This document shows positions 12,188 through 53,260 of a DNA stretch of 64,000 bases, in pieces. The translations under genes and the position numbers were made by a program. The number at the start of each line of letters is the position of its first letter. The stretch's first letter is position 1. The stretch lies in sequence record OQ718158.1; one strand, 5' to 3'. This DNA is from Escherichia phage vB_Ec-M-J. The notes under the pieces are model-generated. The model had not been told where the DNA came from. It saw only the letters and a list, made by a program, of their open reading frames with translations, and did not search any database.

Positions 12188-12721
12188 ATGTTAGATAAAA
12201 TAAAGAACGAGGGAACTCTATACAATCATCTTAAGTTGGATACGTTCGAGGCAGCAATCAGTACTGCACAAGATATAATTGATATTATCAAGTACATTAA
12301 AGAAAATAAGTTAAAATGTGTGAAAACGCCAGAACGTACAATGTACAAAGATGACGACCTTCACGTATCAGTTGTTAAGCCAAAAGATAAGGATGGTAAT
12401 AGAGATTTCTATAATAACAGTGCACAGTATGAATGTGAATATGATCCCGAATTTAGAGGTGGATTCATGTGCTTCAGTAAAACAGATACTTCACATGTTG
12501 AGATACGTACATTAAAAGGTCTAGGTAGATTTGAGTTCATGGATATAGAACTAAATGAAGAAAACTACTTCCAACAATCATTACTTAATACTGAATACAA
12601 TTTAGGTGTACTATTCATGTACAAGTACTTATATGAGCACTTAAATGAAGACTTCTATCTGGACTTAGAAGATTACCATTTAGTATGGAAAGAAATGGTA
12701 GAACTTCGTGAGAACTCTTGA
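12188..12721 (+). CDS. hypothetical protein, family A
   Basis: ATG 12188 with GAGG RBS 12179-12182; motif EENYFQQSLL. Confidence 0.65.
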   Translation: MLDKIKNEGTLYNHLKLDTFEAAISTAQDIIDIIKYIKENKLKCVKTPERTMYKDDDLHVSVVKPKDKDGNRDFYNNSAQYECEYDPEFRGGFMCFSKTDTSHVEIRTLKGLGRFEFMDIELNEENYFQQSLLNTEYNLGVLFMYKYLYEHLNEDFYLDLEDYHLVWKEMVELRENS

Positions 12722-12747
12722 CACCCTCCAAATCTTTGTGATATAAT
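12718..12747 (+). promoter_or_regulatory. sigma70-like promoter (TTGACA-N18-TGATATAAT)
   Basis: -35 TTGACA 12718-12723, extended -10 TGATATAAT ending 12747, 34 nt upstream of the gene at 12781. Confidence 0.6.
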
Positions 12748-12780
12748 CTCTTTATATTAATTGTAAAGGGTTATATCACA

Positions 12781-13263
12781 ATGTCCAAAGACCTATCATT
12801 TAGCAATGCACAAAAAATCGCACAAAATATCATTAAACTTCATAAGTTCCTTTTAACAGTTAAAGAGAATATAATTCTCCCACGATGCACACTTTATGCG
12901 TACAAAAATTATTTGTCAATGAATAGCAATTTGTTGCATACTACAGATGAGAATTTCTGTGGTATTCGTGTACTTGACGATGCACCAACAGGGGATTTTA
13001 TCTCATATTGTTTCCATACATCTGATAGTTTTAAGTACTATCATCCTAGATTTAATGATGATGAATATGAATATGACACATTTAATGTTAGATCAGAAGA
13101 AGAATTCTTCCAGTACAGTACTTTGTACAATGAGAGAATCGTGTTTAGTTCTACAATTTTTACAGTACTTAAAGATGAACTCAATGACGCAGATGATAGA
13201 TTCTATATGGATTTAAACTTCGTAGATGAAATCATTGAGTACATGGAGAAAAATGGTCTATGA
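12781..13263 (+). CDS. hypothetical protein, family A
   Basis: motif SEEEFFQYSTLY. Confidence 0.7.
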   Translation: MSKDLSFSNAQKIAQNIIKLHKFLLTVKENIILPRCTLYAYKNYLSMNSNLLHTTDENFCGIRVLDDAPTGDFISYCFHTSDSFKYYHPRFNDDEYEYDTFNVRSEEEFFQYSTLYNERIVFSSTIFTVLKDELNDADDRFYMDLNFVDEIIEYMEKNGL

Positions 13264-13742
13264 TTACAACAGAATATGATTACGATGGTGTTTTAGAATT
13301 TGCATCTAACATTCATCGCATTGCAAAGGAGTTCAGAAGTCCCCAACCTTTCGGTGGAATGCCTTTTGGTGGAATGTTCCAATATGACCAATTCAGTTCA
13401 ACCAAAGGAAGACTTGCCTTTAAAAATAATAAGGGCAATCAAGTATATGCTGAGTTCTTTGACGATAATGACTTTCACTACAGAGCTGAATATATTTCAT
13501 ATTGCCAAGGGTCTGATTTGAAGATTAACATTGATACATTTAGAGATTCAGTGTTTATCCCTTATAGTGAGTTAGTTTTCATGACAGAAGAAATGTACTT
13601 CCAAGGGTCTTGTATTCATGATGCAAAAGTACTTAATGCTATATTACTTTATGGTGCACTACTTCATCATTACAAATACAAACAACGATTCTTTATAGAT
13701 TTAGTTGTATACCATCAATGCGTGGATTATTTGAATGCATAA
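13260..13742 (+). CDS. hypothetical protein, family A
   Basis: motif TEEMYFQGSCIH. Confidence 0.65.
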   Translation: MITTEYDYDGVLEFASNIHRIAKEFRSPQPFGGMPFGGMFQYDQFSSTKGRLAFKNNKGNQVYAEFFDDNDFHYRAEYISYCQGSDLKINIDTFRDSVFIPYSELVFMTEEMYFQGSCIHDAKVLNAILLYGALLHHYKYKQRFFIDLVVYHQCVDYLNA

Positions 13743-14097
13743 TACAACAACAATTCAGTACATGACGGATGGCAATGATTGCTTTGCTTCAAGATATGAA
13801 TTCATCAAGAACCATTTTGTAACCTATATCCCTGAATATAATCAGTTTTATCTACAGATTTACCAAAATGATTCATATATGAATGAGATATATTCTGAAA
13901 TAAAAATCCCTGATTATAGTACTTTATCAGAAGAGGAATTGTTTCAGGAGAGCACTGTCAATACTGAAGATGTGTACGAACTAATGGAATACCAGAAGGT
14001 ACTTAAATATTTCCATGAAGTTCAGGATATACAAATGGATAGTGTTAAAACGTGGAATTATAACACATACGAGGTAAATTATGTTCGAAATGATTAA
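13735..14097 (+). CDS. hypothetical protein, family A (ELFQESL subfamily)
   Basis: motif EEELFQESTV. Confidence 0.65.
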   Translation: MHNTTTIQYMTDGNDCFASRYEFIKNHFVTYIPEYNQFYLQIYQNDSYMNEIYSEIKIPDYSTLSEEELFQESTVNTEDVYELMEYQKVLKYFHEVQDIQMDSVKTWNYNTYEVNYVRND

Positions 14098-14494
14098 AAT
14101 TATGCAACGATGCATTGTTGACCAACATGGAATATATGGATATAGTTTAAGTGCAGCTATTGACAAAAACAAAACAACCTATGTAAGCTATAATTCAGTA
14201 CTTGGATTTGATATATTCATTGATGCCAACAATAAAATCAAACAAGCCAAGGATGTATCTATAATGACCCCTGATGAGCTATTTCAGTACAGCTTAGTTC
14301 TGCCCACCTGTATTGATTTACAACGCCTAGGAGCTATACAGAAGGTTTTACGCGAACATAAAGTACAACCAAATAAAATTACACACATTCCAGAAACATT
14401 CTACAAACCCATAGAAGTAGAAACACCTGATTATATGTTAAGTGATGATGAGTTCTACAAGAAACACTTCCCTGGTAAAGTTTGGAGAGATTAA
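14081..14494 (+). CDS. hypothetical protein, family A
   Basis: GAGG RBS; motif PDELFQYSLV. Confidence 0.6.
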   Translation: MFEMIKIMQRCIVDQHGIYGYSLSAAIDKNKTTYVSYNSVLGFDIFIDANNKIKQAKDVSIMTPDELFQYSLVLPTCIDLQRLGAIQKVLREHKVQPNKITHIPETFYKPIEVETPDYMLSDDEFYKKHFPGKVWRD

Positions 14495-14976
14495 TGAACC
14501 GAAAGTACAGAGAAACTATGAAGTTCGCTAAGGAGTGTTTAGAGACAGTTGATTTCATTTTCGATAACAAAGACTCATTGGGTCGCCACTTCGTAATTAC
14601 AAAGAAAGAAGATAAGAGATACAAATGTCAACGATTAGGATACAGTATTGAGTTCTCCTTAATGATTGATGGCATGATAAACTCCTTATATGAATGTGGT
14701 AAGACTGATTACATTTCATTTAGATCTTGGAGTGAACGTGTCATGTTCTTGACTCCAAATGGAGTTGTATATCCTTTTCTTGATGATTTATCAGAAGAAA
14801 GTTACTTTCAAAATAGTTTAATTTACACAGAAAAAGAACTCAAAATGCTATTCATTATGTCGTACTTTAAAAAGTACTGCAATTTTAAATCATTATCTTT
14901 TGAGATCTCTGCAATGAAAGTATTCATTAAAAATGTAAAAGAATTAAAGAGGATTTACGATGTACATAGAAAATGA
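14494..14976 (+). CDS. hypothetical protein, family A
   Basis: ATG 14494 overlapping upstream TAA, GGAGAG RBS; motif EESYFQNSLIY ... IMSYFKKY. Confidence 0.6.
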   Translation: MNRKYRETMKFAKECLETVDFIFDNKDSLGRHFVITKKEDKRYKCQRLGYSIEFSLMIDGMINSLYECGKTDYISFRSWSERVMFLTPNGVVYPFLDDLSEESYFQNSLIYTEKELKMLFIMSYFKKYCNFKSLSFEISAMKVFIKNVKELKRIYDVHRK

Positions 14977-15502
14977 TAATGTAAAATGCATTGCCGACAT
15001 TTGTATAAAATTAATGAAAATTTTCATTAACCCAAAATACAAGACTCGTTCTTTACGTCATAATATTGATGATCATTGTGTAATTACTATTCTAGGTAGT
15101 ATGCTTGATGTAAAGTACGATGGTAAATTGTTATTCGGTGTCCGAGAAGAGAAGATAGATGATGTCTTCTTTTCTCCTAAAGATAAGTTTGAACCTTCTG
15201 ATTATAAAGTAATTATTCGTGATGATAGTATCTACATTAGTAGTGACTATTCAAATTACGTCGAACAGATATACACTGAAAATGTTGACTACAACCATGA
15301 ACTACTAGATTTACCAACATCAGACATAGATATGGAGAGAATCAAATTTTCATTATCAAATAATGAGTACTTAGGTATACAAACATATTATGCACTTCAG
15401 GGAAAGATTCCACCTGCGATGTATATAAGAATTGAGATTGGTAATGTATTCAGTGATACGGTTATATCAATTGCTGATAAAATATTGAAGGTACAATTAT
15501 GA
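14960..15502 (+). CDS. hypothetical protein
   Basis: 180-aa ORF; AGAGGA RBS; family motif not evident. Confidence 0.5.
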   Translation: MYIENDNVKCIADICIKLMKIFINPKYKTRSLRHNIDDHCVITILGSMLDVKYDGKLLFGVREEKIDDVFFSPKDKFEPSDYKVIIRDDSIYISSDYSNYVEQIYTENVDYNHELLDLPTSDIDMERIKFSLSNNEYLGIQTYYALQGKIPPAMYIRIEIGNVFSDTVISIADKILKVQL

Positions 15503-16056
15503 ATTTTACTAATTATAATTTACATAGACTTGAATTACGTCATTGTATTGCATTTGCAAAAACATTAATGTGCATCATTGATACACTATCATCTAAAACT
15601 TTTCGAAAGGATAATGATTTATGCCTTAAAAAAGGTAAAGTACAAAAATACGATTATACAGATGAAACGTATTTTGATATCTTTTTGGGAACAAATGATA
15701 GTACAAGAGTAGGATGTTTGGGAACAGTTGGAACACATTGCTTTACATGGAATCCAAATTCAAGTAAAGTACGAATTGACACCAACGATACATGTTATGC
15801 TGACCTTAGTACTGAATCTGATTTAGAATCAGTTATGTTCCAACACATGTTAATTCATAAACCAAATGAAATTCTTTATCTTGTTGCTTTTAGTTATCTC
15901 TTACAAAATTATAAATCAGGTTTTACTATTGAAACTGATATCGATGAGATTATGGATGAGATTCCTAGTTTAAAAGATATTCTTGAAGAAAAAGATTTCT
16001 ATCAGGACTTTAGAGATTTATACAACATGCACAGGGAGTTATCTGATAATGAATAA
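15499..16056 (+). CDS. hypothetical protein, family A
   Basis: motif ESVMFQHMLIH. Confidence 0.55.
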   Translation: MNFTNYNLHRLELRHCIAFAKTLMCIIDTLSSKTFRKDNDLCLKKGKVQKYDYTDETYFDIFLGTNDSTRVGCLGTVGTHCFTWNPNSSKVRIDTNDTCYADLSTESDLESVMFQHMLIHKPNEILYLVAFSYLLQNYKSGFTIETDIDEIMDEIPSLKDILEEKDFYQDFRDLYNMHRELSDNE

Positions 16057-16567
16057 AGATGATATTCTAATCAGACTAATCAACAGTCTGTTAAAATTCG
16101 TGAATAGTGATAGTGATACACACAATGTAGGTGACATTGAATTCAAATCATTTGGAATGTACGGTGAGGACAAAACATATTATGCATCAATGAAATTCCA
16201 AGATTATTATGAAATGTTAATTGCGTTAACATACGAAGATGTGGACCCAAGATGGAGTTCCAGTATTTCTCTGTCGAGAATGGTAATTCGTAGTAAACAT
16301 CGTTACATTTCGTCAAAGAATACTCCTAATTTGTTTGATATTGTTTTGAATGAAAATACCAACCCCCCATCTAAACATGATATCGTACCTTTAACTGATG
16401 AAGTACAGTTTCAATTGAGTACCATTTGTGATGAAGATGTGATATCATGTATGAAAATTTACGAGAAGATTGGTAGTGATATCCCTAAGAACTATTACAT
16501 AACAATAGATGGAACGTACCTCCGAGATGAGGCTCTAGCGTACATTGACAGCGTTTTACCAAAATAA
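16049..16567 (+). CDS. hypothetical protein, family A
   Basis: ATG 16049 overlapping upstream stop; motif DEVQFQLSTI. Confidence 0.55.
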   Translation: MNKDDILIRLINSLLKFVNSDSDTHNVGDIEFKSFGMYGEDKTYYASMKFQDYYEMLIALTYEDVDPRWSSSISLSRMVIRSKHRYISSKNTPNLFDIVLNENTNPPSKHDIVPLTDEVQFQLSTICDEDVISCMKIYEKIGSDIPKNYYITIDGTYLRDEALAYIDSVLPK

Positions 16568-16590
16568 AGACCCTTATGGGTCTTTTTGTG
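16568..16590 (+). terminator. rho-independent terminator
   Basis: hairpin AGACCC-ttat-GGGTCT followed by a T-run. Confidence 0.65.
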
Positions 16591-16598
16591 TTTAGTGC

Positions 16599-16627
16599 TT
16601 TACATGAGCATTCAGGTGTGTTATAAT
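16599..16627 (+). promoter_or_regulatory. sigma70-like promoter
   Basis: -35 TTTACA, 17-nt spacer, extended -10 TGTTATAAT; 28 nt upstream of the gene at 16655. Confidence 0.5.
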
Positions 16628-16654
16628 CGCTTTTAACAGAGTACAGGAGAAGAT

Positions 16655-17218
16655 ATGAGTACTGAATTAATTAAAGAAATCACATTGTTGGTAAAGCATT
16701 GTTTTAAGTTCATTGATGATAATGGTTCACGCCAGTACATTAAAGTTAATGAGAAATATAACATTAACGTCCTAAAGAATGAAACCGTTAACAGTTATGC
16801 AAACATTGAGTTAGATGTTGAGGACAAATACACAGCATTACACATCATTTCGTCCGGCGATAGAAAACAAGATTATCGTTCTACATTTTATGATGATAGT
16901 GTTACTGTTGGTTATAAATTTCATAAAAATAAAATTGCCTATAAGAATACATACACACATGAAGTAATTGAAGAGTACAATTATAAAATTAAAAAAGACG
17001 AGTACGATGTACTTTTATTCAATGCGAACCTCATACACAACGCTGGTACTGTTCGCAATCTTATGTTAGCATATGAAATTCCAAAGATTATAGAAAGAAA
17101 TGAATTGATAATCTTTAAAACTATATTAAAATTCAGTACAGAAGAATTAGAAGATCTAGTACTGGCTCTTAAGACGTTCATCAATGAACATGTACCTGTT
17201 AAATTAGAGGACTTATAA
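16655..17218 (+). CDS. hypothetical protein
   Basis: 187-aa ORF; AGGAGAAG RBS; first gene after a terminator-promoter pair. Confidence 0.6.
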   Translation: MSTELIKEITLLVKHCFKFIDDNGSRQYIKVNEKYNINVLKNETVNSYANIELDVEDKYTALHIISSGDRKQDYRSTFYDDSVTVGYKFHKNKIAYKNTYTHEVIEEYNYKIKKDEYDVLLFNANLIHNAGTVRNLMLAYEIPKIIERNELIIFKTILKFSTEELEDLVLALKTFINEHVPVKLEDL

Positions 17219-23900: not shown

Positions 23901-24374
23901 ATGGAGATTAAAACTGTTGAGAATGGAAAGATAGATGACATTTTAGAGTTGGACGCATTCAAAGTTCATGATATAATGTTCAATGTAAAGGACATAATTC
24001 AGTGCTTGTTTTTATGCAGTAAAACTATGCACGACTTCTTTCACAATCCAAATACTAATGTTTTCATACTAACAATCAGTACTAGCAATTCGTTTATCAT
24101 GGGTATGCCTATGAGTACAAATGACGAGTACATTGATTGTGTTATTCGTAACAATGATAATATTACCCCACAATCTGAAGTACGTAAGAAAAAGAATACA
24201 TACACTATCAAAGATGATAAAATCATGATGTGTTGTAGTAAAGGGTTTATTTTGGATAATTTTAAAGTGAAAGATAGTTATCATGATTTTAAAGTATCAG
24301 AGACACAAACTAATGTAGTTCTTTACGCAAGTGATATTGAAAGCCTAACAGTTAAAGATCCCGATTTGGAGTAA
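23901..24374 (+). CDS. hypothetical protein
   Basis: 157-aa ORF; AAGGA RBS. Confidence 0.55.
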   Translation: MEIKTVENGKIDDILELDAFKVHDIMFNVKDIIQCLFLCSKTMHDFFHNPNTNVFILTISTSNSFIMGMPMSTNDEYIDCVIRNNDNITPQSEVRKKKNTYTIKDDKIMMCCSKGFILDNFKVKDSYHDFKVSETQTNVVLYASDIESLTVKDPDLE

Positions 24375-25710: not shown

Positions 25711-25738
25711 TGGACATGACAATTCCTTGTGATATAAT
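25711..25738 (+). promoter_or_regulatory. sigma70-like promoter (TGGACA-N16-TGATATAAT)
   Basis: -35 TGGACA 25711-25716, -10 TATAAT 25733-25738 preceded by TGA. Confidence 0.55.
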
Positions 25739-25771: not shown

Positions 25772-26158
25772 ATGAATACAAGTTCTGTTCTAAAAGCTAT
25801 TGGTGGTGTACTTCTGATTGAAGTCCAGGGTGAACCTAAGCTATGTTGCTTAGAAGACATGAAGAATACTAAACACTTCAGTACTGGACAGATTTTCAAT
25901 GCTATTCGTGTTCTTAACGACAAATCAGTACAAGACTATGGAAAGGTATGGCCTTCGTATGTAAATCCTGAAGGTGAAATTAGTGCTGATTGGAAAACAA
26001 TTGAAGCAGTACGTGTGAGTTGTGAGAGCGATTGGGATTTCATCGTTGAAGTATGTGACCAACTGCAAGAAGATGTGCCAGAGATTGTCGAACGTAAAGA
26101 AGTTCTAGCACAACTTGATAAATTCCGTCACGGTACTCTACCGTATGACGTAATCTAA
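25772..26158 (+). CDS. hypothetical protein
   Basis: 128-aa ORF; GGAGA RBS. Confidence 0.6.
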   Translation: MNTSSVLKAIGGVLLIEVQGEPKLCCLEDMKNTKHFSTGQIFNAIRVLNDKSVQDYGKVWPSYVNPEGEISADWKTIEAVRVSCESDWDFIVEVCDQLQEDVPEIVERKEVLAQLDKFRHGTLPYDVI

Positions 26159-26566: not shown

Positions 26567-27415
26567 ATGAAACTTTATCTAATCGTTGACTACAGTAAGG
26601 GTTATTATGACTACGCAGAAGAATCTGAAGGGTATTGCTCGTCTACTAATGTCAATGTACGCACAAGTAATACACATGAGCATGAATCTATTACAAGCCT
26701 AAAAGATTTCATCGCATATCGAGCATTTGAAAAGAATTTCTGTCGTAGTAGATATTCGAAGTTTGAGTACCCGTTAATTGATGTTCCTGATGAATTGATG
26801 TTCCAGTTAATGCTCACTGGAGTACAAGATTATGATTACATCGCGTACAATCACATTACTAAGAAAATTTATATCGGTACGTCAACACATGACATTTCTA
26901 TGTATGCATCATGCCCCGATGATCGAATGAATGATAGAAAATCATACTATAGTGGATCAGTTGGTTCAAATGATTCATTAAATGAAAATTTATTCTTTGA
27001 GTACGAGTTTGATAATCATCGAGGGAATAAAGACCGAGAAGATTATTGTACTGAAATTGATAGTACCAATGGATATGAAGAAGTGAAAGAAGCGTTAATG
27101 CCATATATCCTTGACAAGTACTACAAAGATTTTCAGTACTGTAGTAATTTTCTAATCAGAAATTCTATCATAATAGGTCGTCAAAGTACTGCATTCTCTA
27201 AGTACTACAATGATTCCCCTGTTGCTGAAAATGAAAACTGTAATGTTCTCTCAATCCCACGTGAAGATATGGTATTCATGTTCACATCTTTCATTGAAGA
27301 TGATGAGTTGTATGTAAAAAACAAGCACAGGTTCATGCCAAGTAAGATTGAGGTTATGAGAAGCTTAAGTGCAGATATCTTAACGAATTTCACTGAAAAA
27401 ACAGAATACAACTGA
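26567..27415 (+). CDS. hypothetical protein with family-A-like motif
   Basis: 282-aa ORF; GGGAGA RBS; motif PDELMFQLMLTG. Confidence 0.6.
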   Translation: MKLYLIVDYSKGYYDYAEESEGYCSSTNVNVRTSNTHEHESITSLKDFIAYRAFEKNFCRSRYSKFEYPLIDVPDELMFQLMLTGVQDYDYIAYNHITKKIYIGTSTHDISMYASCPDDRMNDRKSYYSGSVGSNDSLNENLFFEYEFDNHRGNKDREDYCTEIDSTNGYEEVKEALMPYILDKYYKDFQYCSNFLIRNSIIIGRQSTAFSKYYNDSPVAENENCNVLSIPREDMVFMFTSFIEDDELYVKNKHRFMPSKIEVMRSLSADILTNFTEKTEYN

Positions 27416-27441
27416 GACATACCATAAGTTTATGATATAAT
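27414..27441 (+). promoter_or_regulatory. sigma70-like promoter (GAGACA-N16-TGATATAAT)
   Basis: -35 GAGACA 27414-27419, -10 TATAAT 27436-27441 preceded by TGA; faces the ORF-free island. Confidence 0.45.
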
Positions 27442-27444
27442 GTA

Positions 27445-27478
27445 AGGTGACAGCAGAATATGTTGTCACCTTTTTTTA
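27445..27478 (+). terminator. rho-independent terminator-like hairpin
   Basis: AGGTGACAG...TTGTCACCT followed by TTTTTTTT. Confidence 0.6.
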
Positions 27479-28096
27479 ATCCTGAAAGGTTCCATATGGA
27501 AATGATTGAAGCCTAATCCACTCGAAAAGTAGAGGGTAGATGAGTAGTCCTTTCAGTACGAACAGCAAATGAAACCCGTTAGATGATGGCATAGTTTGAA
27601 CCACTCACGGCAATGCGGCTGTATAAAGAACTCCAATAGGATAAAGAGAGTTCCTCGATAGACATATAAGGATCGCACCTTACCAATTATCTAAGGGAGA
27701 TTTCATGAGAAATTTGCGGTCGTAATTTATACAAAATAGTTGCGTCCAAAATTCGTGAAATCAAATACAAGTACTGGTCATATGGTATTTGTATTATGTG
27801 TCGGGATGTTTAAGACCGACGACCGTTGCTACAAGAACCGCGATAGAGAGAAACAGAGCAACCCGCTTTCGCCTCGTAAGAGAATTCGTGATATGAACTA
27901 TGTGAAGGCCACCAGCGTCAAACTTTTTTTGTTCTTTCCCCTGCGGGGGGATGAAATATGCTCAAGCAAACCCCGTCAATATTAATTAAAACAAATCATA
28001 GTACTTTCGTTGAATTAGACATGCGAAGCGTGTATAATTCGACTGGTGTTGATGAAGTCAACGCCATGTACAGTCATTGATGTTTCCATAGGAATA
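27479..28096 (+). ncRNA. candidate structured non-coding RNA or regulatory island (identity unknown)
   Basis: ~600 bp with no credible ORF in a dense genome, visibly higher GC, palindrome TTCCATATGGAA, long-range complement CCTGAAAGG / CCTTTCAG, GC hairpin CCCCTGCGGGG. Confidence 0.25.
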
Positions 28097-33243: not shown

Positions 33244-33517
33244 ATCGAATGAAGTACTTGTTGCTGAAACAATGAAGATGGTTTATGCCATAACAACTAG
33301 TAATGATTTGTCTTACCCAATTAAGTCCAAGTTGAGGGATATAACTCTTCAGGTTATACAGCAGTACTACAAATCTAAACACAAAAGTATTATTAATGTT
33401 TATCGTGACTATGAAAGGATTCGCATTTTGTTCTGGAACAAGAATCGAGTTCGTTCGGAATGTGATATAGAAAACTTTAAATTTGAGAATCTTTATTGTT
33501 ACAAAGCGGGACAATAG
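33233..33517 (+). CDS. hypothetical small protein, family B-like
   Basis: ATG 33233 after AAGGA. Confidence 0.5.
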   Translation: MANKSNEVLVAETMKMVYAITTSNDLSYPIKSKLRDITLQVIQQYYKSKHKSIINVYRDYERIRILFWNKNRVRSECDIENFKFENLYCYKAGQ

Positions 33518-33535
33518 CTCAAGTAGTGATATAAT
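33508..33535 (+). promoter_or_regulatory. sigma70-like promoter (GGGACA-N16-TGATATAAT)
   Basis: -10 TATAAT 33530-33535 preceded by TGA; -35 GGGACA 33508-33513. Confidence 0.5.
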
Positions 33536-33575
33536 ATTGGGTATGGAACAATAACTAACACAAGGAGTGTGTAAA

Positions 33576-34499
33576 GTGCCAAGTAAAAAGCCAGATTCTG
33601 AAGTATTCAGACTGGTTGATGAAAAATTGAGTTCAATTGGTTCATCGGTAAAAATGGATAGAACAACATACACAACCATATCAAACAAATCAACTTTTTT
33701 CTGTGATGAATGTGGGTTTAGTAAAAATATCATAGTTAGGAATGTGTACAAAAATGGAATATTTTGTCATTGTCCCACATTTAAAACTTTATATAATAAA
33801 TTGGGTGAAATTAATTCAAAATTAAAATTAGATATTTCCACATTCACAACTACAAAAAACAAATCTAGATTTTATTGTGACGATTGTGCGTTTGAAAGAT
33901 ATATGACGGTGCATGATGTTAAGTCTAGAGGTGCATATTGTAAATGTCATTCATTATATTGTATGCCGTTAGATATCGACGAAGCATATAACACTATTAT
34001 GAATAAAATAAAAGATTACTCAAATACAATACATATGGATAAATCTACATACCGTGGTACACAATATAAGGTTAGATTTTATTGTACAGAGTGTAATTTT
34101 GACAAATATATTAATTATAGTAGAGTTAAATGTGGAACTCTTAACTGCAATTGTATCAGACCAATCCCAGAAGAAAGTAAATTATATATTTTAGGAATAT
34201 ATGAACAAAATATTTTAATAAAATATAAAGTTGGTATTTCTACAAAGATTGATAAATCAAGACTAATTAGTATTAGGTCAAAAACTAATTTTATAGTAGA
34301 GGAATTATATTATTTTACTGGAAATACCGAAGTTATTAAAAGTGTAGAATATAATATTTTAAATCTGCTTAAAAATAGTAGTAAATTGTCAAAGGATTAT
34401 TTTGGCGATGGGTATACTGAAACATTTGATTTACAAGATATAAATCTTGTTATTGATTATGTATGTAAATGTTTACTCGAAAATAAATTAAAAATATGA
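33576..34499 (+). CDS. T5orf172/GIY-YIG-like domain protein with three N-terminal zinc-ribbon repeats
   Basis: three ~45-aa repeats each with CxxC ... CxC; C-terminal LYILGIYEQNILIKYKVGIS ... FGDGYTETF; GTG 33576 eight nt after AAGGAG. Confidence 0.55.
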   Translation: MPSKKPDSEVFRLVDEKLSSIGSSVKMDRTTYTTISNKSTFFCDECGFSKNIIVRNVYKNGIFCHCPTFKTLYNKLGEINSKLKLDISTFTTTKNKSRFYCDDCAFERYMTVHDVKSRGAYCKCHSLYCMPLDIDEAYNTIMNKIKDYSNTIHMDKSTYRGTQYKVRFYCTECNFDKYINYSRVKCGTLNCNCIRPIPEESKLYILGIYEQNILIKYKVGISTKIDKSRLISIRSKTNFIVEELYYFTGNTEVIKSVEYNILNLLKNSSKLSKDYFGDGYTETFDLQDINLVIDYVCKCLLENKLKI

Positions 34500-37428: not shown

Positions 37429-38567
37429 CCCTTTTACAAATATATGAAGATTTAATGCACTTATGTAATACCCGTGATGCTTTCTTTTATGTGGATCATA
37501 AAAGTCCTGCTGGTGGAACATATCGTGTATTCAGTTATCGTCTAGCATCATATACCGATTTCATGCAACCCAATGCATTAGAAACCCGTGGTTCTATGTG
37601 GGAAATTGATGAAGACGGTGATATGATTCGTTGTGCTGCTCGTACTATGAAAAAGTTCTTCAATGCTTACGAAAATCCTGCTACAATGTTCCCTGCTGAT
37701 ACCTCATTCGATGACATTGCAGTAGTGATGCCTAAGTTGGATGGTTCAGTAATCAGTACTTACCGTGATAATGATGGTGTAATTCGTTGTAAATCACATA
37801 CTGCATTGTATTCAGACCATGCGATTAACAGTACTCGTCTTCTCAATGAGAACCAAAATTTGTATCAATACATTGACGAAGCAGACCGTTTGGGCTATAC
37901 TGTTAATCTGGAGTATACAAGTCCAGAGTACCGTATTGTATTACCATATCAGGTTGAACAATTATTTGTACTAAACGTTCGCAATCGTAAGAGTGGTGAA
38001 CTATTATGTGGTTCTGCATTACGTAATAAGTTCCCATGCCTTGCACAGTACAGTACTAACATGACAGGTAAAGATATTCATTACACTTTCCCTGCTCGTG
38101 CTACATTCAAAGAAAGTGTTGAAGAAGTTAAGAAAATGCTTGACATTGAAGGTTTTGTGTGCATCCTAAATAATGGTACAATGTGCAAAATCAAAACCGA
38201 CTGGTATTGTTCTTTGCATTTAACGAAAGACAGTATTATAATCGATTCCCATTTATATGAAGCTGTATTAAATGGTTCGAGTGATGATTTAAAACAGTTG
38301 TTCAGTACTGACGAATATGCTACCCAAAAGATATTAAGAATGGAACAACTAGTCTTTTCGTGCTATAATGCTTTACAAGATGAAGTTGAAAGCTTCGTCA
38401 AGGAACACAAGCACTTGGAGCGAAAGGAATTCGCTAAGAAGGTTCAGGAGTGTTTAACTAATGAACTGAATCGTCAGGGCTTGGCCTTTGCAATGTACAA
38501 CAATAAGAAAGTCGATTACAAAGAGACTCTTATTAAGTACATGAAAATTGTACTAAAGGATTTTTAG
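37425..38567 (+). CDS. rnlA: RNA ligase 1 (T4 Rnl1/gp63-like)
   Basis: 380 aa; N-terminal FFYVDHKSPAGGTYRVFSY and lysine-nucleotidyltransferase motif I MPKLDGSVISTY align with T4 Rnl1. Confidence 0.9.
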   Translation: MTLLQIYEDLMHLCNTRDAFFYVDHKSPAGGTYRVFSYRLASYTDFMQPNALETRGSMWEIDEDGDMIRCAARTMKKFFNAYENPATMFPADTSFDDIAVVMPKLDGSVISTYRDNDGVIRCKSHTALYSDHAINSTRLLNENQNLYQYIDEADRLGYTVNLEYTSPEYRIVLPYQVEQLFVLNVRNRKSGELLCGSALRNKFPCLAQYSTNMTGKDIHYTFPARATFKESVEEVKKMLDIEGFVCILNNGTMCKIKTDWYCSLHLTKDSIIIDSHLYEAVLNGSSDDLKQLFSTDEYATQKILRMEQLVFSCYNALQDEVESFVKEHKHLERKEFAKKVQECLTNELNRQGLAFAMYNNKKVDYKETLIKYMKIVLKDF

Positions 38568-38596
38568 TACTATCTAGCCTAGCACAAGGAGAAGTG

Positions 38597-38851
38597 ATGG
38601 CTAAACCTAAGTATAAAAATGACGGTTCCCTTTCTCCGACAGAATTCAGGAAAATACAAGAAGAAATCGATGAATTACAGCACAAACGCTCTAAGAAAGG
38701 TGTGAAGATTAGTAAGAAACGAATCGAGAATACTTTCGGGTGTAGTAGTACTGAATACAAGAAGAAAAGGAAACCAAAAGGTGTTAAGCCGAGAATACAT
38801 GATGTAACTCGCTATACATCGAAACGTGAAAATAAATTCGACCCACTATAA
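38597..38851 (+). CDS. hypothetical small basic protein
   Basis: ATG 38597 after AAGGAG; Lys/Arg-rich. Confidence 0.5.
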   Translation: MAKPKYKNDGSLSPTEFRKIQEEIDELQHKRSKKGVKISKKRIENTFGCSSTEYKKKRKPKGVKPRIHDVTRYTSKRENKFDPL

Positions 38852-41647: not shown

Positions 41648-41953
41648 ATGGATATACAAACATTCAATAAACTAAAGTACTATGACAATGGTTTTGCTAT
41701 TATCATTGATGAACTAGATGGAATACCATATGAGTATCATAATGATGTAATGAAGATAGTAAAAAGTATTTGTAATGATTTAAAAACTATTTTCGAAAAT
41801 GAATATGTATACGACTTAGGTACAAACAATAAGAAACTATACATAAAGAAATTCTGTGGAACGCATTGTGGTCTGATGGTTGATTTAGGTTTAAGTGCTG
41901 ACAACAATTTCGAAGCATGTAGTTTATATCTGGATGAAATGCGAATCTCATGA
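41648..41953 (+). CDS. hypothetical protein
   Basis: 101-aa ORF. Confidence 0.5.
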   Translation: MDIQTFNKLKYYDNGFAIIIDELDGIPYEYHNDVMKIVKSICNDLKTIFENEYVYDLGTNNKKLYIKKFCGTHCGLMVDLGLSADNNFEACSLYLDEMRIS

Positions 41954-41979
41954 GACATATCTTGATTCGGTGATATAAT
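41952..41979 (+). promoter_or_regulatory. sigma70-like promoter (GAGACA-N16-TGATATAAT)
   Basis: -10 TATAAT 41974-41979 preceded by TGA; -35 GAGACA 41952-41957. Confidence 0.5.
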
Positions 41980-42001: not shown

Positions 42002-42340
42002 GTGGTTGTTGTGAATAACGATTTTTTAAAAATGTGGGAAAAAACAATAGTAATTCTATCTAGTTCATTAATGCACATTTTCAGTACTGATAATTCTTAT
42101 AGTTCACATACATTTGATTTAATATGTAATAACTATGTAAATGGTATATCAGATGAAATATGTCCATTCATTGCGTATTCACCGGATGGTATTGAAGAAT
42201 TTAATATATGCAACATCAGTTGTGGTTTTGGTGATTGGCTTGTGTTAAATGATCGAGGTGGAATCTGTTTATACATCGAAGATATTGGTAAATTTATATA
42301 CAAAGGAGTAGAATATGTTAACAATCGCAGCAGTTATTAG
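42002..42340 (+). CDS. hypothetical protein
   Basis: GTG start; Cys-rich 112-aa ORF downstream of a promoter. Confidence 0.4.
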   Translation: MVVVNNDFLKMWEKTIVILSSSLMHIFSTDNSYSSHTFDLICNNYVNGISDEICPFIAYSPDGIEEFNICNISCGFGDWLVLNDRGGICLYIEDIGKFIYKGVEYVNNRSSY

Positions 42341-43718: not shown

Positions 43719-44461
43719 TGAAACATTTTTTGGAAGTTACAGTACCGGATGATAAAGATTTATATATCGTTGGTGATTTACACGGCAATGGAAAACTGTG
43801 GGATGCTACCAAGAAAGAATTTGGTATCACCAATAATGACTATGTTTTTTGTGTAGGTGATGTTATTGACCGTGGTGACCAGAATTCCAAACTACTATTT
43901 GAATTCCTTTTCGGTGAAAACCGTTTTATGATTGCTGGGAACCACGAGATCATGTGTGTTGATTCTGAAACTCACCGTGACTGGCATCACTGTTGGGTAC
44001 AAAATGGTGGAGATAAGTTCATTGATGAAGTTGGTGAGACAGGTATACAGTTCTTCCGTCAGTACTTAAAGGATCTCCCTATGATTATCCAAATCAATCA
44101 CCGAGGATTGAAGATTGGACTGGTTCATGCTGGTGTTCCTTTGGAATATACCACATGGGAACGTTTCGTTAGTGGGACAAAATCACTTAGTGCTGATATA
44201 ATTGAGAAGTGCTTGTGGGACCGTGATACATTCGACTACTGCAAGAAAAATAACACATATTACGTCCCTAGACTTGATGGCATCCATTGCGTCTTTAGTG
44301 GTCATACCGCAGTATCCGACCCACTCATCTACGGTAATCGTATCTGGATTGATAGTCAGTTTTTAACTGGTGATTTGACTCTTGCAACTCCCCAAAGTGG
44401 CGGGATGAGATACTTACGTAAAGAAAAAGATGAGTATTCATTTAACCGCTTCAAAAGGTAA
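43718..44461 (+). CDS. Ser/Thr protein phosphatase (PPP family, lambda-PPase-like)
   Basis: GDLHGN, GDVIDRGD and GNHE metallophosphatase motifs in canonical order. Confidence 0.8.
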   Translation: MKHFLEVTVPDDKDLYIVGDLHGNGKLWDATKKEFGITNNDYVFCVGDVIDRGDQNSKLLFEFLFGENRFMIAGNHEIMCVDSETHRDWHHCWVQNGGDKFIDEVGETGIQFFRQYLKDLPMIIQINHRGLKIGLVHAGVPLEYTTWERFVSGTKSLSADIIEKCLWDRDTFDYCKKNNTYYVPRLDGIHCVFSGHTAVSDPLIYGNRIWIDSQFLTGDLTLATPQSGGMRYLRKEKDEYSFNRFKR

Positions 44462-44465
44462 TAAT

Positions 44466-46582: not shown

Positions 46583-46593
46583 GGGAATATACA

Positions 46594-48012: not shown

Positions 48013-48031
48013 TCATTTATAGGAGGTAATT

Positions 48032-48823: not shown

Positions 48824-48832
48824 GGTAATGTT

Positions 48833-49228
48833 ATGATACATACACTTCACATTGATGATAAAATGCTTGTTATATTGGGTAGTTGTTATATGTTTCAACG
48901 ATTGGGTATGCGTATGCTATACTCTTGTGACAAAACCCAATACTACAATCCTGATGGTACTGGTACTGTGATGAAAGATAGGCATCACTTCACCAGTGAT
49001 GTAAAACAAGCAGACGATTTAGATTCATTTGCGGGAAAGGTGTATGTTCTAATTAATGATGATAGACGTGGTGGTGTGTTACCATTCAGTACTTTATCAA
49101 TTAATACGTTCTTTAAATACGAACAATTTTCAAATTCACTAAGAATGATTGAGATTGATTTTGATGACATCCCAGTTGGTATACGATATGAATTTCTTCA
49201 TGCTCTTGCATCAATAGGGGTGTACTGA
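48833..49228 (+). CDS. hypothetical protein
   Basis: 131-aa ORF; AAGGTAA RBS. Confidence 0.5.
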   Translation: MIHTLHIDDKMLVILGSCYMFQRLGMRMLYSCDKTQYYNPDGTGTVMKDRHHFTSDVKQADDLDSFAGKVYVLINDDRRGGVLPFSTLSINTFFKYEQFSNSLRMIEIDFDDIPVGIRYEFLHALASIGVY

Positions 49229-49611
49229 TGGAAAATATCGTTGTGTATGTAATTGAGTACAATGATGAAATAAAGTACGTAATTAATGGTTATAAACATT
49301 ACTCCAGTGCAGCCAGAAAGCTGGAAATATATTCAAAAGAAGCAAGAAACTACTGCTTAGATGATGATTCAGTTGAGGTTTGGATTGATGGAAATGCAGA
49401 GTACTTTGATGCTAACTTCTATGAAGATCTTGACAAATCAAATGAATTATACATTTATGTAGAAAATGAACGTTATTACACAAATTCTTTGTTTGACATT
49501 ACCGACTCTACGGTGTATGATAATGCTATGGTTAAGTTGTTAAAGATTGACCACGATATGTTTAATAAACATACAATTTGCGGTTTACTCGATTTTTTAA
49601 GAAACTTGTAG
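49228..49611 (+). CDS. hypothetical protein
   Basis: 127-aa ORF. Confidence 0.5.
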   Translation: MENIVVYVIEYNDEIKYVINGYKHYSSAARKLEIYSKEARNYCLDDDSVEVWIDGNAEYFDANFYEDLDKSNELYIYVENERYYTNSLFDITDSTVYDNAMVKLLKIDHDMFNKHTICGLLDFLRNL

Positions 49612-49636
49612 ACAAATACGAACACTGTGATATAAT
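49609..49636 (+). promoter_or_regulatory. sigma70-like promoter (TAGACA-N16-TGATATAAT)
   Basis: -35 TAGACA 49609-49614, -10 TATAAT 49631-49636 preceded by TGA; upstream of clpP. Confidence 0.6.
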
Positions 49637-49670
49637 ACTCACATCAATGAAACAATAGAGGAAAATAACA

Positions 49671-50366
49671 ATGGTTGAACAATTCAATTTTGGTGGTTAT
49701 GCTGGTGGTGAAGTTCGCAACATTTCTATTCCTTATGTAGTTGAAAAAGTTAATGGTGCAGAACGTACTTATGATCTAGCATCTCGTATGATGCAAGACC
49801 GTATCATTTTCCTTGATACTGACTTCAATGACCAAATGGCACATATCATCAAGCAACAATTGGTGTGGTTGGATTCTCAGGGTTCTGAACCAATTACCTT
49901 CTACATTAGTTCTCCTGGTGGTTCAGTACACGCAGGTTTGGGTATCGCTGACATTGCTAAGTCTTGTGTATCTCCTATCCGTACAGTAGTAATGGGTTAT
50001 GCAGCATCAATGGGTTGCTATACACAATCAGTAGTTGGGACTAAAGGTTTCCGTCTAGGTGGTAAGCGTTCTTACTTCATGTGTCATCAAGTAAGTTCCG
50101 GTACTCAGGGTCTGATTACCGATCAGAAGATTTCTTTGAAACACTCTGACGCATTGAACACACTATTGACGAAAGAAATTGCTGAAGCAGTTGGTGTATC
50201 ACACGAACAACTACTGAAAGATGCTGACCGTGACCTGTGGTTGAACGCTGAAGAAGCACTCGAATACGGTGAACATGGTTTCATTGATGGTATCATCCTT
50301 GGTCCACGCAACGAAGAAGGTAAGTATCTCGTCAAACGTCGCGGTGGCGTGGAAGAGTGGGTCTAA
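49671..50366 (+). CDS. clpP: ClpP-family serine protease subunit
   Basis: RIIFLDTDFNDQMAHIIKQQLVWL, ISSPGG, catalytic Ser in GYAASMG and His in FMCHQ align with bacterial ClpP. Confidence 0.9.
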   Translation: MVEQFNFGGYAGGEVRNISIPYVVEKVNGAERTYDLASRMMQDRIIFLDTDFNDQMAHIIKQQLVWLDSQGSEPITFYISSPGGSVHAGLGIADIAKSCVSPIRTVVMGYAASMGCYTQSVVGTKGFRLGGKRSYFMCHQVSSGTQGLITDQKISLKHSDALNTLLTKEIAEAVGVSHEQLLKDADRDLWLNAEEALEYGEHGFIDGIILGPRNEEGKYLVKRRGGVEEWV

Positions 50367-50380
50367 TTTGAATTTCATTT

Positions 50381-50408
50381 GATGCCTCATTTGGGGCATC
50401 TTATTTCT
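50381..50408 (+). terminator. rho-independent terminator
   Basis: hairpin GATGCC...GGCATC followed by TTATTTCT. Confidence 0.6.
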
Positions 50409-50417
50409 GGAGATTAT

Positions 50418-50708
50418 ATGAAAGTTCTTGTACGTAATAATACTGAAGTCAATGATGTGTTGGATGATTCAGAGTTTATTAATGTCGCATTAGATCAGAT
50501 TAGTGCAGTAGCTCTTGAATTGAAAGGTGTTGACGAGGCAGAACGAGTACTCAATGGTTTTTCTATTGTTCTCGAACTAATGCAAGAAGTTCTTATTAAA
50601 AAGAACATTAATCCAATTAACGCAGTTCAACACGCAGAAGCTATGCGTCAAGAACATGGCACATTCTCAGATAAAAAATTCATCAGTACTGACGAGGGGA
50701 AAGAATAA
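50418..50708 (+). CDS. hypothetical protein
   Basis: ATG 50418 after GGAG. Confidence 0.5.
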   Translation: MKVLVRNNTEVNDVLDDSEFINVALDQISAVALELKGVDEAERVLNGFSIVLELMQEVLIKKNINPINAVQHAEAMRQEHGTFSDKKFISTDEGKE

Positions 50709-50709
50709 T

Positions 50710-51156
50710 ATGTCTAATGCACAATACAAAGAAGGTTCTGCCGCGTTTAAAAACAAAGTAGTTTTTAACAATGAACAGCTAAAATCACAGCACCCACTAT
50801 TCCGTCAAGGTTATCGTGCTGCACAAGCTGAAGCTATGAAGAAAAACAACGTAACATTCCCAACAACTCTGTATGATATTCCTAAACGTCCATCAGTGTT
50901 TAAAGCAGAATGGACTGACATTATGGCAGCAACTAAACGTCCTCGTTTTGCTAAACTTCACACTGATGAAGGTCGCTGGATGTTGATGGGTATTATGAAA
51001 GCAGTTGAGAAACAGGCACATACCATCGTTCGTTACAAAGACGTTGTAGCTATGGTTGATAAAGCATTTGATCTTATTCTCCAGTACGGTTATGATGAAG
51101 GTGTACTAACTGTATCTGATTGTGAGCAGTACCAGTACACTCCATTCCAGAAATAA
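50710..51156 (+). CDS. hypothetical protein
   Basis: ATG 50710 after GAGGGGAAAG. Confidence 0.55.
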   Translation: MSNAQYKEGSAAFKNKVVFNNEQLKSQHPLFRQGYRAAQAEAMKKNNVTFPTTLYDIPKRPSVFKAEWTDIMAATKRPRFAKLHTDEGRWMLMGIMKAVEKQAHTIVRYKDVVAMVDKAFDLILQYGYDEGVLTVSDCEQYQYTPFQK

Positions 51157-51163
51157 TTACTTA

Positions 51164-51192
51164 GGGAATCTTTCATGATTCCCATTTTATTT
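51164..51192 (+). terminator. rho-independent terminator
   Basis: hairpin GGGAATC-tttcat-GATTCCC followed by ATTTTATTT. Confidence 0.7.
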
Positions 51193-51428
51193 GCTGCATA
51201 TCAAAAATTATTGATCAAAAATTGATCCATACGAGGTAAATACCCAAGGTGTAATTGTTAATAGGGTAGGTGGATATGCAGCAATATAAATTATCTGAAG
51301 ATCAAAGTGATTTATTTTTCAATCACATGTTTTTAATTGATGAATTTGCCGAAAGTTAAAATTCAGAGGCAATAGCTATAGTTAAAAAGTGGTATTCTTG
51401 CTATAACAAGAACAAAAAATGGTATTGG

Positions 51429-51794
51429 TTGAATAGAAATTTAAAATCATTTCTAGGAACAATAACTAGTACTGATAGTATTGAACTAATATATAGTTCC
51501 ATTGGCTATAGTTACTTAACCAAGCATAATAATACGTCAATAGAGTCTGGCTTTAAAATCAAGCGTCTAATGAAATTGACGGGATTGAGTGCAGAAACTA
51601 TACAAAACGATACAGAAAAGTTATGGAAGATTATAGAATTCATGAATAAAAATATGTCATTTATATATAGAAACTATGATATATTCACTGATGTACGACA
51701 ATTTTATAAGAGTCCATATTCACTTAATGAGAAATATTTCCGACACATGGAATTATGCTCAACTATGGTTGATGAATGGAATTTAGAGGATTAA
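51429..51794 (+). CDS. hypothetical protein
   Basis: ORF begins at TTG with no ATG; reading frame is open upstream back to a TAA at 51357-51359. Confidence 0.4.
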   Translation: MNRNLKSFLGTITSTDSIELIYSSIGYSYLTKHNNTSIESGFKIKRLMKLTGLSAETIQNDTEKLWKIIEFMNKNMSFIYRNYDIFTDVRQFYKSPYSLNEKYFRHMELCSTMVDEWNLED

Positions 51795-51795
51795 T

Positions 51796-52323
51796 ATGAA
51801 ATACACTGCTCTTAGCCCAACTGATACTAAAGTATGGTTGAGTAATTTGAACAAAACTATTATTTTAACCAAAAAAGTGATATCAACAGCTAATTCATTA
51901 GATGTAAATATCAAGAAGAATGTTCTTAAATATCATCACCGAAGTAAACTTAGTACTTGGTACTCCAATATTTTTTACGGCTTATATGGGATGGATGATA
52001 TTTTAATTGGTACATCATCTGGGTCATGCTTCAGTGCTGGTGGTATGTGCTTTATGGATTTGGGTTTTTCATTATCCGATGAAGAAATCGAGTTTAAACA
52101 ATTCCGTGACAAGTTACTGGGTTCGGGTGATATCAAGTTCTGTACAGAATTAATGGGAGCATGGGACGTTTATGCAGCGAAACCATTTGACATTGAAGAA
52201 TCAGATGTGCTAAACTACCTTCGTGTTCTTAAAATACATTCGAACTGTAAAACCAAATTACAATCCCTAGGAGTATATGATGAAACACTTGACGTGGTTG
52301 AAGATAGCCGAAGTCGTGGCTGA
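51796..52323 (+). CDS. hypothetical protein
   Basis: 175-aa ORF; GAGGA RBS. Confidence 0.55.
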   Translation: MKYTALSPTDTKVWLSNLNKTIILTKKVISTANSLDVNIKKNVLKYHHRSKLSTWYSNIFYGLYGMDDILIGTSSGSCFSAGGMCFMDLGFSLSDEEIEFKQFRDKLLGSGDIKFCTELMGAWDVYAAKPFDIEESDVLNYLRVLKIHSNCKTKLQSLGVYDETLDVVEDSRSRG

Positions 52324-52759
52324 AGAGAGTAAATGCATTTCACAGAAAGTTGGTTGTGTTATTGTTAAAAATAACCGAGTATTGAGTACTGGTTATAATG
52401 GCACTCCATCTAAACAACCTAACTGCTGTGACGCTAATGAGCACTTAGTTAATGGTGGACGTTTCCAAGACTGGGTTAGCGATGACGCAAAGCATGAACA
52501 CCATGAATGGAGTAATATCCATGAAATCCATGCTGAAATGAATGCATTGTTATACAGTTCACCTACCGAACGTCAGGGAGCAACACTTTACACAACGCTG
52601 CAACCATGCTATACTTGTTCTAAGTTGATCGCGGGAAGTGGTATTGCTCGCGTGATTTATCACAAAAGTTATCCTCGCACTCCACCAGAAGCTATTAAAG
52701 TACTGGAAGATGCTGGGATTATTGTAAATTGCATTTATGATAAGGGGTTGGGACTTTGA
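52277..52759 (+). CDS. dCMP deaminase (T4 Cd-like)
   Basis: N-terminus LKIAEVVAEESKC, then zinc-binding HAE and PCYTC motifs and STGYNGTPS, as in T4 Cd. Confidence 0.85.
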   Translation: MMKHLTWLKIAEVVAEESKCISQKVGCVIVKNNRVLSTGYNGTPSKQPNCCDANEHLVNGGRFQDWVSDDAKHEHHEWSNIHEIHAEMNALLYSSPTERQGATLYTTLQPCYTCSKLIAGSGIARVIYHKSYPRTPPEAIKVLEDAGIIVNCIYDKGLGL

Positions 52760-53016
52760 CTTTCTTGATTTTAGGTATCCCATTTGCAGTTGTGATTCTT
52801 GTACTTTTAGTGATGATGGTATTAAATGATAATACTACTCCACCAGTGATGCGTAATCATGAAGTACGATTTTCAGCACAAAACAACAAGTACTACATTG
52901 TAAATTGTTTAACTTGTAAAGAGTATAAAGTAACTGGTAAATTTGGTTTTACCATTTATTATAAAGACCGTGTTGAAGCTGACATGATTTGTCAGAAACT
53001 TAATACGGTAGAATAA
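52756..53016 (+). CDS. hypothetical small membrane protein
   Basis: TTG start after AAGGGG; N-terminal hydrophobic helix. Confidence 0.4.
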   Translation: MTFLILGIPFAVVILVLLVMMVLNDNTTPPVMRNHEVRFSAQNNKYYIVNCLTCKEYKVTGKFGFTIYYKDRVEADMICQKLNTVE

Positions 53017-53024
53017 AAAAAAAA

Positions 53025-53050
53025 GGAGCCATAAGGCTCCTTTTTCTTTT
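53025..53050 (+). terminator. rho-independent terminator
   Basis: A-run, hairpin GGAGCC-ataa-GGCTCC, then TTTTTCTTTT. Confidence 0.7.
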
Positions 53051-53137
53051 GTTAGTACACAACTTGTTTGAATTTCAGGAAAACTCTTAGATCCAACAAC
53101 GAGTTCAGTACTACCACGTTATTTGTTGACAAAAGCA

Positions 53138-53165
53138 TAGACATTATACATTAGTGTGATATAAT
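53138..53165 (+). promoter_or_regulatory. sigma70-like promoter (TAGACA-N16-TGATATAAT)
   Basis: -35 TAGACA 53138-53143, -10 TATAAT 53160-53165 preceded by TGTGA. Confidence 0.55.
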
Positions 53166-53232
53166 CATTCAAAAGAAGGTAAAAAGGTGGGATGATTCTG
53201 CGAGGGAATTTGTGAAGTGATATAAAAAACAA

Positions 53233-53260
53233 TTTGACTTAAGTTAAATCTTCCTATAAT
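53233..53260 (+). promoter_or_regulatory. sigma70-like promoter
   Basis: -35 TTTGAC(T) 53233-53239, -10 TATAAT 53255-53260. Confidence 0.45.

Follow-up and report, generated by a model that had tools for sequence, protein, structure and literature searches.

A lineage-specific class of predicted extended -10 promoters in a jumbo coliphage, with a box at the -35 position that may be read by a phage-encoded factor

What recognizes the two-block motif that recurs between the genes of Escherichia phage vB_Ec-M-J? We analyzed a stretch of 64,000 nt from this phage (sequence record OQ718158.1; the whole stretch is called the window hereafter), in which several intergenic gaps carry a GACA box followed, 13 nt later, by TGATATAAT. 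An initial annotation, made from the sequence alone, had listed seven such sites and had read them as one co-regulated promoter class, probably used by host sigma70 early in infection. We confirmed the coordinates and the hexamers of all seven (7/7). Our preferred reading, to which we give a probability of roughly 0.5, is that the motif marks a delayed-early or middle promoter class whose box would be read by a phage-encoded factor.

In a megablast search, 20 kb of the window matched the 121Q/PBECO4-like jumbo coliphages (genus Asteriusvirus), the closest match being Escherichia phage EC.P1 (98% identity; 86% for 121Q). The motif is strongly over-represented on one strand: there are 13 matches to TGATATAAT in the window (3.4 ± 1.8 expected), 12 out of 13 of them on the + strand, on which almost every gene of the window lies. 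GACA-N13-TGATATAAT is found exactly seven times on the + strand and not once on the - strand of the whole window, and when at most one mismatch is allowed there are 10 matches against 0.59 expected (0 out of 100 shuffles gave at least 10). The weight-matrix search that the initial annotation had proposed recovers the class on the + strand only: a matrix trained only on 29 sites of phage 121Q gives, at a threshold of at least 16 bits, 10 window matches on the + strand, none on the - strand and 0.0 in shuffled sequences. Generic sigma70-like scans of the window show no enrichment (100 matches seen versus 112 and 88 expected); it is only the GACA-N13-TGATATAAT architecture that is enriched. The spacing of 16 nt given in the initial annotation is right for the distance between the two hexamers, but not for the gap from GACA to TGATATAAT, which is 13 nt; a search of the window for GACA-N15-18-TGATATAAT returned a single match, at 12718. 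Each of the seven exact sites falls in a gap of the gene annotation (7/7; P ∼3e-8 given that ∼8% of the window is intergenic), and at six sites the end of the -10 element is 23–35 nt upstream of a start codon that carries a ribosome-binding site.

The sites (all on the + strand; scores are from the 121Q-trained matrix) were compared with their counterparts in 121Q. GGGACA-N13-TGATATAAT at 33508–33535 (30.7 bits) lies 32 nt 5′ of the GTG of an open reading frame (ORF) for an endonuclease-like protein (33567–34499), and its box and -10 are identical in 121Q while the spacer is different. TGGACA-N13-TGATATAAT at 25711–25738 (25.7 bits; 34 nt 5′ of the ATG of ORF 25772–26158) has the same -10 in 121Q, with the box TGAACA; GAGACA-N13-TGATATAAT at 41952–41979 (21.0 bits; 23 nt 5′ of the GTG of ORF 42002–42340) has the box GAGACG there, with the -10 unchanged. 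TAGACA-N13-TGATATAAT at 49609–49636 (22.7 bits) is 35 nt 5′ of the ATG of a ClpP-like protease gene (ORF 49671–50366); the upstream DNA of 121Q is non-homologous here, yet it has TGGACA-N13-TGATATAAT at the equivalent position. One exact site was absent from the initial list: GGGACA-N13-TGATATAAT at 58524–58551 (19.7 bits; 31 nt 5′ of the ATG of ORF 58582–58779), which is conserved in 121Q. GAGACA-N13-TGATATAAT at 27414–27441 (29.7 bits), also conserved in 121Q, has no ORF behind it and heads a structured RNA, which is described below. TAGACA-N13-TGATATAAT at 53138–53165 (20.1 bits) is 136 nt 5′ of a protease gene (ORF 53301–53909) and is the sole site preceded by a terminator-like hairpin (53020–53045). 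The suggestion that several sites follow a terminator is thus true of 53138 only; at 27414 a terminator-like site comes after the motif, not before it.

The seven sites of the initial list share their architecture, except that 12718–12747 differs: it has a perfect TTGACA, an 18-nt spacer and TGATATAAT, 34 nt 5′ of ORF 12781–13263. This is a predicted promoter of a different, related kind, with both a canonical -35 and an extended -10, and is conserved in 121Q (at 177983). Four further + strand sites are candidates. TGGACG-N13-TGATATAAT at 23950–23977 (30.9 bits), identical in 121Q, lies 50 nt inside the 5′ end of the annotated ORF 23901–24374, and is either an internal promoter or a sign that the start codon of this ORF was set too far upstream. 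GGAACA-N13-TGCTATAAT at 38342–38369 (27.1 bits; 121Q counterpart at 202733) lies within the 3′ end of the RNA ligase gene, 225 nt 5′ of ORF 38594–38851. GGGACA-N13-GGATATAAT at 56268–56295 (16.5 bits) lacks the TG and lies inside ORF 55834–56385, 100 nt 5′ of ORF 56395–56715. A weak candidate, GGGACA-N14-TGATATAAT at 44174–44202, is inside the Ser/Thr phosphatase gene; it is conserved in 121Q (at 208867), but the stretch is coding sequence.

The 13-nt spacer has drifted between the window and 121Q, whereas box and -10 have been retained. Across 26 sites, likewise, box and -10 hold most of the information and the spacer almost none, which points to selection on two separate blocks and not to a copied cassette. 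When the 121Q genome was examined in full, GACA-N13-TGnTATAAT had 19 exact matches, every one of them on the + strand. These sites precede genes for SSB (two sites in tandem), primase, exonuclease, tRNA-Ser, ClpP- and ClpA-like proteins, a nudix hydrolase, an ATPase and a gp55-like late sigma (g591); they also head three out of four copies of a non-coding element, the box of the fourth copy being the variant GGGATG. The idea of one co-regulated promoter class is therefore well supported, by the location of the sites on the gene strand and between genes, by the 23–35 nt to the start codon and by the conservation of box and -10 against 121Q. Taken together, we consider it very likely that the sites are real promoters, and they would make up one lineage-specific class used by the host core RNA polymerase.

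The two blocks differ in how they relate to sigma70. The -10 half makes its proposed use by host sigma70 plausible: TGATATAAT has, at eight exact sites, the TG one base 5′ of TATAAT that defines a sigma70 extended -10, and TGnTATAAT is the optimal form of that element, so that host sigma70 holoenzyme could very probably fire these sites with the extended -10 as the only element. The box is no -35 of the sigma70 kind. GACA is preceded in the window sites by GG, GA, TG or TA, and T at position 2 is found in 0 out of seven sites; of the 19 sites in 121Q, 17 have a purine immediately before GAC and two have T, at the position where the sigma70 preference for T is strongest. A canonical -35 (near TTGACA, the first two bases being T) does not describe the class, and only 12718 has TTGACA. 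The class is better described as a TGRRAC hexamer at the -35 position, 17 bp and then TGnTATAAT; the hexamer, here (T/G)(G/A)GAC followed by A, would take the place of the -35 without being a sigma70 -35.

We compared the box across relatives, in syntenic replication modules and at other loci. It is GGGACA or GAGACA in EC.P1 and 121Q and TGAGACA in EJP2 (all on Escherichia coli); TTGGGACA in the Salmonella phage 7t3, mostly one base farther from the -10; TTGAACA in the Klebsiella phage RaK2; TGAAAC in GAP32, CBB and XbC2 (Cronobacter, Pectobacterium and Xanthomonas, respectively); and TGGAAC in the Yersinia phage Yen9-04. The description common to these lineages is TGRRAC, 17 bp and TATAAT preceded by TGn, and the canonical TTGAC(A) class is constant across all lineages compared. 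The box tracks the phage lineage, not the host. Enterobacterial hosts have essentially the same sigma70. A box that varies by lineage while the hosts share their sigma70, and that has a purine in place of T, argues that its reader is something phage-encoded; we give this slightly better than an even chance.

The early timing that the initial annotation had assigned to the class finds no support in the comparison. In 121Q there is a second class, TTGACA-N16-TATAAT, in which AGTACTG abuts the -10 and the upstream DNA includes an A/T-rich stretch. Its members cluster at 135–154 kb (L005 35800–50000 and L006 1–4000, in our numbering) among tiny ORFs, in the presumed host-takeover region, as dense and near-identical canonical promoters (aaaatagtTTGACAa-N8-tAGTACTG-TATAAT...ttacatcaa); a cluster of this type is not present in the window. 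In the TTGACA class the TG directly abuts TATAAT (AGTACTGTATAAT), so that it is not an extended -10 and these promoters should depend on their -35. The 135–154 kb cluster is probably the immediate-early class. From these arrangements, and from the replication, tRNA and late sigma genes behind the sites in relatives, we infer the timing of the GACA-N13-TGATATAAT class: it would be a delayed-early or middle regulon, between the TTGACA immediate-early promoters, which also precede the phage sigma gene, and T4-like late promoters served by the gp55-like sigma.

A specificity factor encoded by the phage is the most likely reader of the box. The first candidate would be region 4 of the RpoD-like sigma that the phage itself encodes, the homologue of 121Q gp167 (g167). 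This sigma is encoded by every phage of the group that we compared, including EC.P1; its gene (L004 39267–40232; L016 2501–3469) is outside the window. The protein has Pfam regions 2 and 3 and a weak, divergent region 4. The gene lies behind TTGAC-type promoters, and we took this as placing a sigma with DNA-reading regions before the use of the class. It is fast-evolving: 59% identity between 121Q and the clade of the window, compared with 92% for the primase. In a manual alignment, the putative recognition helix reads R-x-x-(I/L)-H-R in four lineages with GRGAC boxes, R-G-T-L-H-Y in RaK2 and K-A-T-L-S-R in GAP32. TGAAAC and GGAAC are known as -35 elements of extracytoplasmic function (ECF) sigma factors (Bacillus subtilis SigW and E. 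coli SigE). We give the phage sigma rather less than an even chance of being the reader of the box, and about the same chance to the reading that the class as a whole is the regulon of this sigma, with region 4 having co-evolved with the hexamer (TGGGAC, TGAGAC, TTGAAC or TGAAAC). If so, three sigmas would act in a cascade on the host core: sigma70 at TTGACA, the RpoD-like sigma at TGRRAC-N17-TGnTATAAT and the gp55-like sigma at TATAAATA. One phage, Ecwhy_1, is listed as being without the fEgEco12 sigma factor in a published comparison (PMC13070987) and was considered as a natural sigma knock-out. We rejected this, as the DNA is present at 98.8% identity (MH791411.1 531–3624), and the reported absence looks like an annotation difference.

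Several points weigh against a middle class with a phage-encoded reader. The -10 half matches the sigma70 optimum exactly, and in our own alignment the residues with which sigma70 reads the -10 and the TG are replaced in the phage sigma (W433/W434 to S/T, Q437 to M, T440 to Y and E458 to V). The covariation of helix and box covers six lineages, in a hand alignment that spans an 8-residue insertion before the region 4 helix. A sigma70 -35 with four or five of its six positions matched can also be seen in the box (e.g. GAGACA at a spacer of 16 nt, or CTGAGA at one of 18 nt), and the T4 early promoters are phage promoters read by sigma70 that have a -35 consensus of their own. Most genes behind the window sites are without known function and so give no clue to timing, and a literature search found no promoter mapping, transcriptomics, timing or binding data for the Asteriusvirus/RaK2/121Q/GAP32 group. 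A homologue of T4 AsiA in 121Q was considered and dropped: tblastn of 121Q with a T4 AsiA query gave a weak match (g502, E = 0.055) and Pfam gave nothing there, in a search made for AsiA only.

Some of these points would fit plain host sigma70 extended -10 promoters, active from the start of infection, in which xxGACA is a weak -35 or has no dedicated reader. It is well established that promoters with a perfect extended -10 such as TGnTATAAT need no -35; GACA fits four out of six positions of TTGACA at a 16-nt spacer; the phage sigma is without the residues that read TG and TATAAT; and the T4 early promoters offer a precedent for a phage-specific -35 consensus. But within each genome it is the box, and not the spacer, that is conserved, and the box varies among lineages whose hosts share sigma70, over which the TTGACA class is invariant. 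T is avoided at the very position where sigma70 most wants it (two out of 19 sites in 121Q), a separate class with perfect TTGACA already fills the tiny-gene region at 135–154 kb of 121Q, and the sites head replication genes and the late sigma gene. We regard plain sigma70 promoters as possible, though doubtful.

A phage-encoded reader need not be the phage sigma. The second candidate would be a MotA-like activator working with sigma70, as in the sigma appropriation of T4: sigma70 would read the extended -10 and the activator would bind TGRRAC, either alone or together with an anti-sigma freeing region 4, and the phage sigma would not be involved. A perfect sigma70 -10 joined to a non-sigma70 box parallels the T4 middle promoters, as is well established, and the TTGACA class is -35-dependent whereas this class has TGn, a split that a -35-blocking factor would exploit. 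AsiA homologues have also been reported in some group 2 jumbo phages (PMC7824862). The sole AsiA-like signal in 121Q, however, is the weak g502 match without Pfam support, and the box differs from the MotA box and sits at -35, not at -30. Appropriation would also leave the conserved RpoD-like sigma without a promoter set: no fourth promoter class was seen in 121Q by k-mer enrichment and in 90 unclassified upstream regions (a method insensitive to rare motifs); these searches turned up nothing but terminators, ribosome-binding sites and forms of the classes already described. Appropriation by an activator thus seems unlikely, and what probability it has is already contained in that of the preferred reading. 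It is very improbable that the motif is no promoter at all but a place where RNA is processed, a DNA-binding site that serves replication or packaging, or a repeat that recombination has spread, for although no transcription data turned up in the literature and promoter-unrelated motifs do occur in the genome (AGTACT is over-represented too), the two blocks stand at promoter spacing around a variable spacer, are strictly co-oriented with genes at a fixed distance from the start codon and match the best-known bacterial -10 perfectly.

Behind the site at 27414 lies an unannotated structured RNA of ∼470 nt (27509–27981, + strand), with 4–5 paralogues per genome across 61 jumbo-phage records; the 121Q paralogues are at L004 40329–40779, L006 42841–43312, L007 47510–48043 and L009 26680–27144. 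In nine well-aligning copies, 39 out of 73 predicted pairs show compensatory changes, paired cells amount to 95.2% (78.4% in shuffles and 39–48% in slid controls) and the covariation score is 0.52 (0.06–0.12 in controls). All copies whose upstream DNA was checked (eight out of eight: four in 121Q and one each in 7t3, GAP32, XbC2 and Yen9-04) are preceded by a promoter of the class, and the orthologous copies in 7t3, GAP32, XbC2 and Yen9-04 each have their own lineage's version of it, which is independent support for the promoter class. An Rfam search of the element gave no match beyond a chance-level DapZ (E = 2), and the element may represent a new family of large phage RNAs. Blocks reading CGAAAA...GAUGAG were considered as a hammerhead, which we rejected because the helix layout does not fit. 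If the box is read as we prefer, the middle regulon would include the four or five paralogous 470-nt structured RNAs.

The terminator-like site of this locus is a hairpin of 12 pairs followed by TTTTTTT (27444–27478, + strand), which begins 3 nt beyond the -10 element at 27414 and looks like the terminator of the upstream gene. The expected transcription start of the 27414 promoter falls in the 5′ arm of the hairpin, and the arrangement recurs in 7t3, GAP32 and XbC2 with other stem sequences. The hairpin may stop transcripts that come from upstream and let those from 27414 pass. Another composite of terminator and promoter is repeated at 98.7–112.8 kb of 121Q (L004 48693–48727; L005 9273–9308, 10554–10590 and 12723–12758) and also found at L016 3470–3535: a terminator hairpin that carries a -35, with the layout GGGTTGAC-TTCG-GTCAGCCC-TTTTT-GCTATAAT and TTGAC within the stem.

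The window has a G+C content of 30–37% and encodes, besides many small genes without known function, RNA ligase, polynucleotide kinase, phosphatase, DNA ligase, ClpP-like proteases and dCMP deaminase. The palindrome AGTACT, which forms part of the TTGACA-class promoters of 121Q, occurs 185 times in the window (16.8 expected) and 903 times in 121Q, in the extended context cAGTACTg. It is the most over-represented palindromic hexamer (8.6-fold; the runner-up is 2.2-fold), and a literature search found no mention of it with jumbo phages. AGTACT is missing from positions 1–5330 of the window, as compared with one per ∼320 bp in the remainder, and this part may be a segment with a separate history.

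Several phages of the RaK2/121Q/GAP32 group are candidates for therapy, and the class offers a handle of moderate interest on the role of the conserved jumbo-phage RpoD-like sigma: a box that varies by lineage against a nearly constant host sigma70 makes it concretely testable which sequence the phage sigma, or some other phage factor, recognizes. For engineering, it offers compact, strong predicted promoters with a possibly orthogonal -35. If the sites are plain sigma70 promoters, the finding is routine annotation.

Among known systems, the closest is in the sister genera. Three promoter classes have been predicted in CBB and GAP32 (Buttimer et al. 2017, citing Abbasifar et al. 2014; PMC5259590): RpoD-like promoters that carry a UP-like element and are found mainly in what is presumed to be the early region; ‘divergent RpoD-like’ promoters (‘promoter 1’), predicted by MEME, in which TGAAACG replaces the -35 and which precede DNA-synthesis genes and a gp55-like gene; and T4-like late ATAAATA sites. 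The second of these agrees with the window class in having a hexamer at the -35 position, 13–14 nt and TGnTATAAT, before the same kinds of genes (SSB, primase, exonuclease and the gp55-like g591 in 121Q, where the TTGACA class is likewise separate) and in the same phage group; it differs in its box, TGAAAC(G) instead of (T/G)(G/A)GACA. The sites in Table S6 of the CBB paper (TGAAACG-N13-TGnTATAAT) are in register with the window sites, and the syntenic sites of GAP32, RaK2, 7t3, EJP2 and EC.P1 have the same layout. In all likelihood the window sites belong to the ‘divergent RpoD-like’ class, of which they are a lineage variant; two Asteriusvirus genome papers do not mention promoters, and we found no description of the class for 121Q-like coliphages.

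The -10 half is like that of E. coli sigma70 extended -10 promoters, with TG one base before a perfect TATAAT, and a weak or absent -35 is tolerated there; here, in contrast, the -35 position is held by a conserved, non-consensus box that varies with lineage. The T4 middle promoters (MotA/AsiA) resemble the class in joining a sigma70-type -10 to a phage-specific box that replaces the -35, in preceding replication and nucleotide-metabolism genes and in standing between an early and a gp55-dependent late class. They differ in the box, which is (a/t)(a/t)TGCTTtA at -30 in T4 and TGRRAC at -35 here: the MotA box, (a/t)(a/t)TGCTT(t/c)A, is not found at the window sites, whose upstream block is (T/G)(G/A)GACA at -34 to -29. 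T4 is also without an RpoD-like sigma, whereas the phage group of the window has one. Nor are these T4-type late promoters, with TATAAATA at -10 and no upstream element, as TATAAT is preceded here by TGA; in 121Q, ATAAATA and CTAAATA are over-represented in other intergenic DNA.

For a phage sigma with promoters of its own, the comparison is with phiEco32 gp36, whose promoter is tAATGTAtA, and with gp47 of phage 7-11 (GTAAtg-N16-aCTA) (PMC8948821). Those promoters do not look like sigma70 promoters, whereas the -10 half of the window class is the sigma70 optimum, and recognition by the phage sigma is experimental in those phages and would here follow from comparison only. What they share with the phages of the window's group is an enterobacterial phage with its own sigma70-family protein and lineage-specific promoters, the consensus of which shifts as the sigma diverges (PMC8948821).

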